A stretch of DNA of 4,345 bases. It comes from a virus. Lineage: Duplodnaviria > Heunggongvirae > Uroviricota > Caudoviricetes. The stretch lies in the IMG/VR virus record IMGVR_UViG_2740892487_000004; one strand, written 5' to 3'. The notes under the pieces are model-generated. The model saw only the letters and a program-made list of their open reading frames with translations, did not search any database and had not been told where the DNA came from. Positions 1-4,345 of the stretch are shown here, in pieces. Position numbers and translations under genes: made by a program. Position 1 is the first letter of the stretch. Each line of letters begins with the position of its first letter.

Positions 1-635
1 GCGCTGATTTTCTTACGCCGCAGTTCATCGTGACAGAGCCGGGTGTCGTAAGCGCCGTCTGCCGATGCTGCCCTGATTTTTCTGTGAGTCTGCCGGATAA
101 GACCCGGGAAGCTTCTGAGTCCGTCACATTGTTCAGCGACAGGTCTGCACAGATGATTTCATGTGTGTTGCTGTCAACTGCCAGATGCAACTTTCGCCAT
201 ATACGACGGCGTTCTTTGCCGTGTTTTTTGGACTTTCCATTCGCCTTCACCAAAGACCTTCAGCCCGGTGGAATCAATCACCAGATGCGCGATTTCACCC
301 CGGGTGGGCGTTTTGAAACTGACATTAACCGACTTTGCCCGCCTGCTGACACAGCTGTAATCCGGGCAGCGTAGCGGAACGTTCATCAGGGCAAAAATGG
401 AATCAATAAAACCCTGCGCAGCCCGCAGGGTCAGCCGGAATACGCGTTTAATCACCAGAACGGTGGTGATGGCGAGATCAGAATAGCGCTGGGGCCTTCC
501 TCGTGAAGAAGGTGTTGCTGACTCATACCAGGCCTGAATAGCTTCATCATCCAGTCAGAAAGTTATGGAGCCACGGTTGATGAGGGCTTTATTGTAGGTG
601 GGCCAGTTGGTGATTTTGAACTTTTGCTTTGCCAC
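1..635 (-). pseudogene. IS903-type transposase, disrupted (one in-frame stop and two frame changes); C-terminal part lies beyond window start
   Basis: Start candidate GTG 635..633. An in-frame TGA at 557..555 falls at the position of a Trp in the recalled IS903 protein, within the otherwise matching motif F-[W]-LDDEAIQAWYE. The frame then stays open to a TGA at 176..174. The conserved transposase sequence continues only after a +1 shift near 222-232 and a -1 shift near 103-115. Confidence 0.75.
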
Positions 636-712
636 GGAACGGTCTGCGTTGTCGGGAAGATGCGTGATCTGATCCTTCAACTCAGCAAAAGTTCGATTTA
701 TTCAACAAAGCC
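500..712. repeat. Left arm of a 213-bp inverted repeat (IS903-like end), partner at 4135-4345
   Basis: The reverse complement of 4135-4345 aligns with 500-712 with 2 substitutions and 2 single-base indels (about 98% identity by hand alignment). The right arm stops at the window end, so the true repeat is probably longer. Confidence 0.9.
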
Positions 713-1143
713 CCGTTGCGCTTAAAGTTCCGCAGTTAGTTCCCATAGCCACAAATGAGGAGATAATTCCGCGCTTACCTTTTGGCGCATATTCCGCCAG
801 CATCGTACCGGCACCGGAAATTTCCGCACCTGCACCCAATCCCTGAATAATACGCAGCGTCACCAGCAAGATGGGGGCAAAAACACCAATCTGTGCATAG
901 GTCGGTAACACACCAATTAAGGTGGTACAGATCCCCATCATGGTGATGGTAATAAAGAGCACTTTTTTACGCCCTATTCTGTCGCCCATTTTGCCGAAAA
1001 TAAATGCTCCGACAATACGCGCCACATGACCTGCACCGTAGGTTCCCATTGCCAGAATTAACGCCATTGCCGTTGATGATTCAGGAAAAAAATATTTCAT
1101 GAAACACTAACGCTGCGCCGAGCGAATATAACTGGAAATCCAT
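713..1143 (-). pseudogene. ydfJ: MFS transporter (metabolite:H+ symporter family) N-terminal remnant, ydfJ-like; frameshifted and truncated by the IS
   Basis: Track ORF 702..1100 (-) reads MKYFFPESSTAMALILAMGTYGAGHVARIVGAFIFGKMGDRIGRKKVLFITITMMGICTTLIGVLPTYAQIGVFAPILLVTLRIIQGLGAGAEISGAGTMLAEYAPKGKRG..., typical of the N-terminal helices of MHS transporters such as ProP, KgtP and ShiA. Its last residues and stop (704..702) lie inside IS sequence. Upstream in another frame, 1143..1084 encodes MDFQLYSLGAALVFHEIFF, which fits the conserved DF-x-x-Y...FFP motif. The two frames join if the 7-base homopolymer at 1086-1092 were 6 bases. A TGA at 1149..1147 precedes it, so about 40 N-terminal codons are missing. 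The gene symbol comes from recalled synteny with ydfK-pinQ-tfaQ-stfQ. Confidence 0.7.
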
Positions 1144-2480: not shown

Positions 2481-3071
2481 ATGTCTCGAATTTTTGCTTA
2501 CTGTCGGATATCAACGCTGGATCAGACCACCGAAAATCAACGCCGGGAAATCGAAAGTGCAGGTTTTAAAATCAAACCTCAGCAAATAATCGAAGAACAC
2601 ATTAGCGGCTCAGCAGCAACCAGTGAGCGTCCTGGTTTTAACCGGTTGCTTGCTCGCCTGAAATGTGGTGATCAATTGATTGTGACAAAACTGGATCGCC
2701 TTGGTTGTAATGCAATGGATATCAGGAAAACAGTGGAACAACTGACCGAAACAGGTATCAGAGTGCATTGCTTAGCATTGGGGGGCATTGACCTGACCAG
2801 TCCAACAGGAAAAATGATGATGCAAGTAATTTCAGCAGTCGCTGAATTTGAACGAGACCTTTTACTTGAACGCACTCATTCCGGGATAGTAAGAGCCCGG
2901 GGCGCAGGGAAACGTTTTGGTCGACCACCTGTGTTAAATGAAGAACAGAAACAGGTGGTATTCGAACGAATTAAGTCAGGTGTAAGTATAAGTGCCATTG
3001 CCCGGGAATTCAAAACCTCGCGGCAAACCATTTTAAGAGCCAAAGCAAAACTTCAGACACCTGACATATAA
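2481..3071 (+). CDS. pinQ: Serine recombinase of the resolvase/invertase family, PinQ/PinR-like (196 aa)
   Basis: Full ORF. The N-terminus [20 protein letters not shown] carries the catalytic-serine motif R-I-S-T-x-D-Q. GRPP at residues 147-150 and a C-terminal helix-turn-helix ([18 protein letters not shown]) are typical of the Gin/Hin/resolvase family. Length and context match E. coli PinQ/PinR as recalled. The Shine-Dalgarno sequence is weak (GAG 2471-2473). Confidence 0.9.
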
Positions 3072-3168
3072 AAAATAATCTCGGTGTGAGATGCTTTACG
3101 TCTTCCAAGCCACCTTCCTTGCCGTAAATGGAAAGATACATCTAATTATAGAATTTATATGTTTTACC

Positions 3169-3744
3169 CTACGGCAGTGCTGGCCATTCAATATCCTGTG
3201 CAGTTGACGTATCAACACGGTTCAGCAATACCCGATACTTTTTCCATGCTTCCAGCAACGAGATTTCTTCCTCCGTTGCAATTTCCAGATCTGCAGCATC
3301 CTGAAGCGGCGCAATATGCTCACTGGCTACCTGCATCAGGCTGTTTTTTGTTTCTTCCGCCTCCCGGATCCGGAACAGTTTTTCTGCTTCCGTATCCTTC
3401 ACCCAGGCTGTGCCGTTCCACTTCTGATATTCCCCTCCCGGCGATAACCAGGTAACATTTTCCGGTAACGGACCGAGTTCAGAAATAAATAACGCGTCGC
3501 CGGAAGCCACGTCATAAACCGTTTTACCCCGATGATCTTCAACGAGATGCCACGATGCCTCATCACTGTTGAAAACAGCCACGAAGCCTGCCGGAATATC
3601 TGGCGGTGCAATATCGATACTGTTTGCTGGCAGACCTGTATGAGGCGGAATATATGCGTCACCTTCACCAATAAATTCATTAGTTCCGGCCAGCAGATTA
3701 TAAATTTTTATGGTCCGTGGTTGTTCACTCATTCTGAATGCCAT
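3169..3744 (-). CDS. tfaQ: Phage tail fibre assembly protein (Tfa chaperone, 191 aa)
   Basis: Full [52 protein letters not shown]..., recognised as the TfaQ/TfaR/TfaE family. Its ATG (3744..3742) overlaps the stop of the upstream tail fibre ORF (TAATG), consistent with translational coupling. Confidence 0.9.
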
Positions 3745-4133
3745 TATGCAAGCCTCACAATATAGTTAAATGCGATGTTTTTGACGGTGTTTTCCGCGTT
3801 ACCAGCAGCGTTAACGGTGATGGTATGTCCATGTGAACCAATCGCAACGGAGTGCGTATGAGCACCAATACCGACAGTATGTGCGTGTGCACCTGCGCTT
3901 GCAGCAGTACCCGATACAGAGTGCGTATGAGCGCCTGCAGAAGAAGTGTTAACACTGTATTTAGAATAATCAGGTGATCCACTTCCCGGAGCACCACTGG
4001 AACCACCTGAAACAAATGTCATCGAATGGGTATGTGCACCGGCTGAAGCAGCCGTACCGCTAACACTATGGGTATGCGCACCAGTGTTATTCGTGGATTT
4101 AGTGCCGTAATCAAACGACGATGTGGTTTTCGT
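3744..4133 (-). pseudogene. stfQ: Side tail fibre protein, C-terminal 129-codon remnant; 5' part removed at the IS junction
   Basis: Track ORF 3744..4223 (-). Residues 31-159 ([37 protein letters not shown]...[11 protein letters not shown]) are typical of the lambdoid side tail fibre C-terminus with His-x-His repeats. Residues 1-30 ([30 protein letters not shown]) are encoded by 4223..4134, which is IS903-like terminus sequence, so there is no native start. Confidence 0.8.
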
Positions 4134-4134
4134 C

Positions 4135-4345
4135 GGCTTTGTTGAATAAATCGAACTTTTGCTGAGTTGAAGGATCAGATCACGTATCTTCCCGACAACG
4201 CAGACCGTTCCGTGGCAAAGCAAAAGTTCAAAATCACCAACTGGCCCACCTACAATAAAGCCCTCATCAACCGTGCTCCATAACTTTCTGGCTGGATGAT
4301 GAAGCTATTCAGCCTGGTATGAGTCAGCAACACCTTCTTCACGAG
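4135..4345 (+). mobile_element. IS903-like insertion sequence, partial copy B, inverted relative to copy A; runs off window end
   Basis: 4135-4153 is GGCTTTGTTGAATAAATCG. GTG at 4212 opens [21 protein letters not shown], then the frame breaks at TAA 4279-4281: copy B lacks one base relative to copy A in GGAGC-CACGG and another in CAGG-CCTGG. Confidence 0.85.

Follow-up and report, generated by a model that had tools for sequence, protein, structure and literature searches.

The window analysed here is a stretch of 4,345 nucleotides from a virus record of the Caudoviricetes, and close to its end a tail fibre remnant is encoded whose short translation carries six His-x-His (HxH) motifs. In the needle of the T4 long tail fibre protein gp37 seven irons are coordinated by HxH motifs (PMC6957217), and each gp37 chain has been described as carrying HXH motifs which bind Fe2+ once the trimer forms (PMC8174754). 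This raises the question of where the remnant comes from, whether its motifs are those of gp37, and whether they would do anything in the genome in which they now lie.

The motifs lie in a remnant of stfQ truncated by IS903B

We compared the window with E. coli chromosomes and found a 99.8% match to the Qin region ydfJ-ynfT-ydfK-pinQ-tfaQ-stf, which places the locus at the end of the cryptic prophage Qin. In the window the genes stand in the order ydfJ', ynfT, ydfK, pinQ (2481-3071; Resolvase and HTH_7 domains by Pfam), tfaQ (3169-3744, minus strand) and stf'. Tfa proteins are the usual partners of fibre tips of the gp37/Stf type, and the gene directly downstream of the fibre tip is such a chaperone gene, tfaQ (PF02413). 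The ATG of tfaQ (3742-3744) shares one base with the TAA of stf, and the minus strand reads ATAATGG at this point.

An intact allele of the gene is found in E. coli ATCC 8739, where it encodes a Stf of 1007 residues and lies after gpJ and an Ail/Lom gene and before tfaQ, in the lambdoid tail order J-lom-stf-tfa. The last 129 residues of this protein, encoded at the Qin locus, are identical to the window fragment, so a sequence-only reading of the window had been right to call it a tail fibre remnant. In the intact allele PF08400 (residues 1-134), PF03406 and the collar domain PF07484 (residues 798-845) score above the Pfam cut-offs, and PF03335 (Phage_fiber) reaches 19.2 bits, slightly under its cut-off of 20. 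The fragment exceeds this curated gathering threshold with 38.3 bits, in two matched stretches that start at the first HxH unit. The intact protein has seven HxH motifs, the additional one being KSHTHSA at residue 866.

Everything upstream of stf' in the window has been replaced by the insertion sequence. The stretch 4135-4345 is an inverted copy of 500-712 (97-100% identity), and in genomes without IS903B at this site the match to the window ends at 4134 and the gene goes on. The upper boundary first given for the remnant, 4133, was accurate, as the terminal repeat of IS903B begins at 4135 and base 4134 is one extra base that belongs to the codon cut by IS903B. The insertion has cost the gene its first ~878 codons, and with them the collar domain and the seventh HxH motif. 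PF07484 is absent from the fragment and present in the homologue P0001; its loss is explained by the truncation and not by a different ancestry, and the position of the cut likewise accounts for the presence of six of the original seven motifs. The fragment does not have the combination of PF08400 and a full frame with a start codon that marks a functional Stf, and it is the remnant of a lambdoid Stf member and not a functional member. We estimate at about 90% the probability that this segment represents the 3' end of the Qin gene stfQ, cut by IS903B, and encodes the distal needle and head module of the gp37/Stf type.

Six HxH motifs hold all histidines of the fragment

The minus strand of 3747-4133 translates to 129 residues, and this translation gives exactly the six motifs that had been noticed at first (AHTHS four times, AHAHT and SHGHT). 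The fragment has 12 histidines, and every one of them belongs to a motif. When the 129 residues were shuffled 200,000 times the mean was 1.0 HxH, and six were reached in 13 shuffles. The pattern is not due to chance.

The motifs follow one another with start-to-start spacings of 14, 35, 14, 9 and 9 residues. A unit of about 20 residues had also been said to occur twice, and we found it as 19 residues, at residues 18-36 (unit A) and 67-85 (unit B), with 18 of the 19 identical. The description of the repeats as tandem holds for motifs 4, 5 and 6 only, which lie 9 residues apart, but not for motifs 1 and 2 or 3 and 4, which lie 14 apart, nor for the two units, which are parted by an unrelated segment of 30 residues. 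The coordinates of all features are collected in Table 1.

Table 1. Positions of the features of the stf' fragment and its surroundings in the window.
Feature	Position	Strand	Remarks
tfaQ, tail fibre assembly chaperone gene	3169..3744	-	PF02413 Caudo_TAP, E = 9.8e-43; RefSeq annotation tfaQ
TAA stop codon of stf	3744..3746	-	read directly from the sequence
stfQ remnant, final 129 codons of a side tail fibre gene of lambdoid type	3747..4133	-	translation, PF03335, gp37 match
C-terminal tail, residues 104-129	3747..3824	-	mostly invariant in 32 homologues
HxH motif 6, GSHGHTI, H101-G-H103	3825..3833	-	gp37 H998/H1000; His kept in 39/39 homologues
first copy of the 20-nt direct repeat; codes for motif 5	3847..3866		one end of the 69-nt deletion
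HxH motif 5, GAHTHSV, H92-T-H94	3852..3860	-	gp37 H989/H991; His kept in 39/39
HxH motif 4, GAHAHTV, H83-A-H85	3879..3887	-	gp37 H980/H982; His kept in 38/39
19-residue unit B, residues 67-85	3879..3935	-	needle strand that comes back from the head
second copy of the 20-nt direct repeat; codes for motif 3	3916..3935		69 nt from copy 1; other end of the deletion
HxH motif 3, GAHTHSV, H69-T-H71	3921..3929	-	gp37 H966/H968; His kept in 36/39 and 31/39
Variable segment, residues 37-66	3936..4025	-	equated with the gp37 head/tip domain; presumed receptor-binding part
HxH motif 2, GAHTHSM, H34-T-H36	4026..4034	-	gp37 H929/H931; last before the head; His kept in 27/39
19-residue unit A, residues 18-36	4026..4082	-	strand leading to the head
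HxH motif 1, GAHTHSV, H20-T-H22	4068..4076	-	gp37 H915/H917; His kept in 38/39
IS903B end	4135..4345	+	terminal repeat GGCTTTGTTGAATAAATCG at 4135-4153; inverted repeat with 500-712

The fragment is homologous to the tip of T4 gp37

We searched all PDB sequences with the fragment by phmmer and obtained one strong match, T4 gp37 in entry 2XGF (E = 6.3e-36). [quoted passage not shown] The entry covers gp37 residues 785-1026, and the match runs from query residue 1 to 129 against residues 112-242 of the chain, which are the last 131 residues of gp37. The pairwise alignment gave 81 identities in 124 positions (65%), and the last 16 residues of the fragment are identical to those of T4. We checked the gp37 numbering against the residues H929, H931, I933, N937 and G938 named in PMC6957217 and found that it agrees.

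All 12 histidines of the fragment align on histidines of gp37, namely 915/917, 929/931, 966/968, 980/982, 989/991 and 998/1000. The first gp37 motif (883/885) corresponds to the KSHTHSA of the intact allele and is gone from the window. The spacing of 14 residues before the head, and those of 14, 9 and 9 after it, are common to the fragment and T4, and the needle strands align to 2XGF without a gap. The glycines G921 and G964, which are packing residues in gp37, are kept as G26 and G67, and F970 is replaced by V73.

Identity is unevenly distributed. It amounts to 25/36 in the first strand, 8/25 in the middle and 48/63 in the returning strand and C-terminus, and the flanks are 69-76% identical to T4 gp37 as protein. 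The low identity in the middle, together with the variation in length of this part among homologues, led us to equate residues 37-66 with the head, or tip, domain of gp37. The regional identities and the register of the histidines indicate that the link to T4 is one of homology and not of analogy, and on this sequence evidence the fragment is homologous to the gp37 tip over its whole length.

Some differences from T4 are also apparent. The head is ~32% identical, and the fragment is 2 residues shorter overall. This divergence of the head suggests that the receptor specificity is probably different, and the receptor itself cannot be inferred. Owing to the insertion sequence the fragment has lost the collar and the seventh motif, the first in order. 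The element that carries the fragment is a lambdoid prophage, whereas gp37 belongs to a T-even phage, and the chaperone beside the fragment is, unlike that of T4, a Tfa (PF02413). What the two share is the order of the HxH motifs, the 14/14/9/9 spacing, the C-terminal end and the presence of a chaperone gene downstream.

HxH histidines are conserved and HxH number varies among homologues

The module is widespread. By tblastn we found it in 539 phage records, from T4-like, lambda, P1-like, P2-like and FelixO1-like phages, and a protein search returned 322 matches that were mostly fragments in E. coli prophages. We aligned 39 distinct homologues and scored the conservation of each histidine. The histidines of motifs 1, 4, 5 and 6 are kept in 38-39 of the 39 homologues (97-100%), and those of motifs 2 and 3, which adjoin the head, in 27-36 of the 39 (69-92%). 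Loss of the histidines in homologues had been named beforehand as an outcome that would speak against a metal site, and this is not what the alignment showed. About one in four of the aligned homologues lacks motifs 2 and 3, which indicates that not every HxH level is obligatory.

The number of HxH motifs across the C-terminal regions of the homologues ranges from 5 to 9. Salmonella phage SI7 has five, P1-like and P2-like phages have six, T4, SPF_0923 and the intact Stf allele have seven, lambda and KAW3E185 have eight, and Shigella phage Sf17 has nine. In the alignment conserved His-box flanks surround a head that is hypervariable and variable in length. In addition, single 9-residue units of the form GAHxHxVxI have been gained in the homologues P0026, P0035/lambda-like, P0089 and P0057.

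Repeat-period changes occur at the HxH motifs

The sequence-only reading had described direct DNA repeats of about 60 bp in this region. This could not be upheld for the DNA. The two 57-nt units are identical at 38 positions (67%), Tandem Repeats Finder returned no arrays over the whole window at a minimum score of 30, and a direct-repeat search yielded 20-nt cores only. The two copies of the core, which encode parts of the fragment 69 nt from each other, are 90% identical over 20 nt and share an exact run of 14 nt. Motifs 3 and 5 aside, pairs of HxH motifs have an exact run of at most 9 nt.

Changes by whole repeat periods do nevertheless occur at the HxH motifs. Two alleles, P0009 and P0011, have 23 residues fewer than the window fragment. 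We aligned the contig DNA of P0011 to the window and found a clean in-frame deletion of 69 nt, which equals the spacing of the repeats at 3847-3866 and 3916-3935 and ends at those repeats. The deletion shortens the returning strand only.

Duplication of a "His box" in T-even phages was reportedly described by Tetart in 1996; our literature search for the phrase itself found no paper using it. The view of the Krisch laboratory, as summarised in PMC3157838, is that exchanges take place within or near conserved adhesin motifs, and the natural repeat-period changes found here agree with it. The repeats had also been proposed as a route to variation in receptor binding. The range of 5 to 9 motifs, the steps of 9 residues and the 69-nt deletion speak for this part of the proposal, but the 57-nt units are too diverged as DNA to make good substrates.

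These observations bear on a broader explanation, in which the HxH DNA repeats would be mainly sites of recombination and slippage where heads are swapped and units of 9, 14 or 23 residues are added or removed. We regard this as possible rather than probable, and we give the same tentative standing to its corollary, in which selection would favour repetitive sequence for evolvability in addition to metal binding. It is consistent with the loss of exactly one period between 20-nt repeats in P0011 (and also in P0009), with the extra 9-residue units and the varying motif number of the homologues, and with the conserved flanks around a hypervariable head. However, the units that flank the head would be poor substrates, being 67% identical and part of no array, and their randomised synonymous sites suggest the opposite of selection for repetitive DNA. 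The 69-nt deletion, moreover, cuts the returning strand only and may be plain decay of a prophage. Recombination at these repeats complements the structural explanation, in which the motifs are needle levels of a gp37-type tip, and does not replace it.

The two needle strands agree as protein and differ in their codons

The two strands that flank the head are alike at 18 of 19 residues in this prophage clade, as against 10/19 in T4 and 13/19 in lambda. At the level of codons this likeness disappears. Third codon positions are identical in 7 of 19 codons, codons for the same amino acid are identical in 6 of 18, and each of the three serines has an AGY codon in one unit and a TCN codon in the other. 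With synonymous sites randomised in this way, we rejected the idea that the 19-residue units arose by a recent duplication or by gene conversion. Salmonella phage SPF_0923 has the same pattern of near-identical strands with scrambled codons.

Most simply, purifying selection would hold both strands at the repeat consensus of the family. Another reading is selection on the DNA, which would remove repeat identity since a recombinogenic direct repeat would delete the receptor-binding head; constraint on the protein, or convergence, would at the same time hold both strands at the PF03335 consensus. We consider this reading quite improbable.

The fragment is a pseudogene in a cryptic prophage

The stf' frame runs into IS903B without meeting an ATG. 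The only upstream in-frame start is a TTG at 4223 within the insertion sequence, and it is a mechanical start of the open reading frame. A search of the minus strand upstream of the fragment found no promoter of the sigma-70 type. Since ~878 codons are gone and no match to such a promoter was found, we take the fragment to be probably silent; transcription reading through from the insertion sequence is possible. The attachment and shaft domains are gone, and the fragment probably has no function in the genome of the window. With the stf' of the window being a pseudogene truncated by an insertion sequence within a cryptic prophage, its HxH motifs would do nothing there.

A role of another kind could be imagined for such a fragment, namely that it is kept as a template with which infecting lambdoid or T-even phages recombine, obtaining a new tip together with its chaperone from stf'-tfaQ as from a reservoir of host range. 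The locus has some properties that would suit this, as tfaQ is intact and its start still overlaps the stop of stf, the flanks are common to several phage families and 69-76% identical to the T4 protein, and the same or a longer fragment persists in many E. coli genomes. However, the fragment occurs in versions truncated in many different ways, which is what neutral decay would produce, and the upstream homology required for a double crossover has been lost to the insertion sequence. We judge a reservoir function unlikely.

Two further readings of the locus concerned mobility and were rejected. An invertible segment of the Gin/Cin/Pin type was dismissed because no AAACCNNGGTTT-type core was found within 2 mismatches near stf, tfa or pinQ; the sole AAACCNNGGTTT-type match, at 1849, is at or below chance expectation, and there is no second copy of tfa or stf in the window. 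A composite transposon of IS903B carrying pinQ-tfaQ-stf' was likewise discarded, as a search of plasmids gave no copy bracketed by IS903B and only Qin-like or prophage matches. Strain 81 has the left insertion sequence only, and strain MSB1_9D has IS903B at other positions.

The intact tip is predicted to bind iron as a trimer

The sequence-only reading had tentatively extended the iron sites of gp37 to this lambdoid fibre. In support of this, 12 of 12 histidines fall on iron ligands of gp37, and metal binding by the Stf tip is thus predicted from sequence. T4 no longer formed plaques when either H929 or H931 of gp37 was replaced by alanine (PMC6957217), and HxH motifs have been reported as conserved in lambda (PMC11705849). 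A review of the T4 tail does not mention iron (PMC3004832). From the homology to 2XGF and the genetics of T4 we infer that the Stf tip would be a trimer and would bind iron and a receptor.

We modelled the 129 residues as a monomer with AlphaFold2 and an alignment of 32 sequences. The model was poor, with a mean pLDDT of 54.7, a pTM of 0.18 and almost no secondary structure, as is to be expected if a fibre tip of this type folds only with its three chains intertwined. Homology, with 65% identity to 2XGF and needle strands that align without gaps, is stronger evidence than the structure prediction.

In the intact Stf of 1007 residues three chains would intertwine. Each chain would run down the needle through HxH motifs 0, 1 and 2, form a small, variable head that would contact the receptor, and return up the needle through motifs 3 to 6. 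The two near-identical 19-residue units are the outward and the returning needle strands that flank the head, and the spacings of 14 and 9 residues represent the period of the "phage tail fibre repeat" of PF03335. At each HxH level the three chains would contribute two histidines apiece, so that a single Fe2+ on the three-fold axis would be surrounded octahedrally by six imidazoles. The intact protein would hold seven irons in this way, and six of the motifs are left in the window. TfaQ is the folding chaperone.

That the motifs are instead a by-product of a low-complexity beta-repeat of Gly, Ala, Ser, Thr and His, which in lambdoid fibres would bind no metal or a metal other than iron, we consider most improbable, for although metal binding has been demonstrated for T4 gp37 only, the composition of the fragment is simple and some homologues do without motifs 2 and 3, every histidine lies on an iron ligand of 2XGF at 65% identity and along gap-free needle strands, all 12 sit in HxH pairs, and they are invariant in motifs 5 and 6 (39/39) and nearly so in motifs 1 and 4 (38/39) while the neighbouring Ser, Thr and Ala vary.

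Relation to known fibre tips

The HxH motifs, their role in metal binding, the homology of gp37 and Stf and the plasticity of fibre tips are already established. The relationship between gp37 and Stf is classical, with George and colleagues in 1983 (listed among the references of PMC3157838) and Hendrix and Duda in 1992 (cited in PMC11705849). Counting of HxH motifs is routinely used for recognising gp37-like tips (PMC11705849, PMC8174754). The observation of the motifs in this window was correct but ordinary, and already known.

Among known systems the side tail fibre of lambda is close to the fragment in its arrangement. It has the same pair of stf and tfa in the same order, with a stop/start overlap as in stf-tfaQ, the N-terminal family PF08400 is common to lambda Stf and the intact Qin allele, and the C-terminal modules are ~60% identical. 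Lambda differs in having eight HxH motifs, with an extra GIGAHQHPV unit, a duplicated TKTT(S/G)SFDYG segment and a different head sequence. The PF03335 model describes a repeat of 14 residues, and the fragment shows no substantial difference from it; the spacing of 9 between motifs 4 to 6 is shorter than the model.

Motifs of the HxH type on a trimer axis have been read as iron sites in other phage proteins as well, such as the tail needles P2 gpV and Mu gp45, Burkholderia phage E094 gp23 and Alteromonas phage R22Y gp12 (PMC11821841, PMC8174754, PMC11705849). For E094 gp23 structural similarity to the gp37 tip was reported by HHpred (PMC8174754). P2 gpV, Mu gp45 and R22Y gp12 resemble the fragment in the motif and not in the domain, whereas gp37 is related to it by sequence homology.

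For annotation, the fragment can with confidence be given the label [quoted passage not shown]. The natural allele with the 69-nt deletion provides a small, clean case of a repeat-period deletion at His boxes.

Protein and DNA of the repeated units

We compared the two 19-residue units of the stfQ remnant, which lie on the outward and returning needle strands of this side tail fibre fragment. As protein they are identical at 18 of 19 residues, whereas as DNA they share only 38 of 57 nucleotides. Third codon positions agree in 7 of 19 cases, and serine codons are swapped between AGY and TCN. The Salmonella phage sequence SPF_0923 resembles the window in having units alike as protein and unlike as DNA. 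In contrast, T4 and lambda do not have this pattern. The only account we offer of the pattern is constraint towards the repeat consensus.

A natural allele, the fragment homologue P0011, was found in an ENA metagenome contig (locus L011, 1700-2109) and carries a 69-nt in-frame deletion, as does the homologue P0009 from NCBI. The deletion corresponds to exactly one period between two 20-nt repeats, and through it two His-x-His motifs are lost, from the returning needle strand only.

Coordinates of the features discussed, in window positions
Feature	Position	Strand	Remark
IS903B ends	1-712 and 4135-4345		inverted orientation
Left IS903B transposase frame	174-680	-	split into separate ORFs 555-680 and 174-455
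ydfJ (MFS transporter gene)	713-1142	-	internal piece only; partial PF07690/PF00083 matches
pinQ (serine invertase)	2481-3168		intact; the gene itself is 2481-3071, the rest reaches to tfaQ
RF02111 match	3203-3401	-	full length
19-residue units	4026-4082 and 3879-3935
20-nt repeats	3847-3866 and 3916-3935

Genes adjoining the tail fibre remnant

Near stf/tfa/pinQ we looked for a crossover core of the Gin/Cin/Pin type and found none, nor does the window hold an alternative tfa/stf C-terminus; pinQ is thus left with no recognisable invertible stretch on which it could act. The match to the Rfam family RF02111 ('IS009') scores 221 bits (gathering score 117). It falls wholly within the coding region of tfaQ, on the same strand as that gene, and the family was apparently derived from coding stretches of tfa genes.

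IS903B ends and the segment between them

The two IS903B ends enclose a 3.4-kb segment (ydfJ'-ynfT-ydfK-pinQ-tfaQ-stf') and form an inverted repeat of 97-100% identity, in three aligned blocks with 1-nt offsets between them. The arrangement as a whole resembles a composite transposon. A plasmid search found no copy of the segment with IS903B on both sides, and in related strains either a single one of these insertions is present or IS903B lies elsewhere. The ydfJ piece is bounded by IS903B on one side and by the Qin prophage boundary on the other, where the N-terminus of ydfJ is missing in RefSeq genomes too. At the same site in strain 81, a related E. coli genome, the transposase gene is whole (969 nt), whereas the frame of the left IS903B copy in the window is broken. 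This could reflect either frameshift decay or homopolymer sequencing errors.
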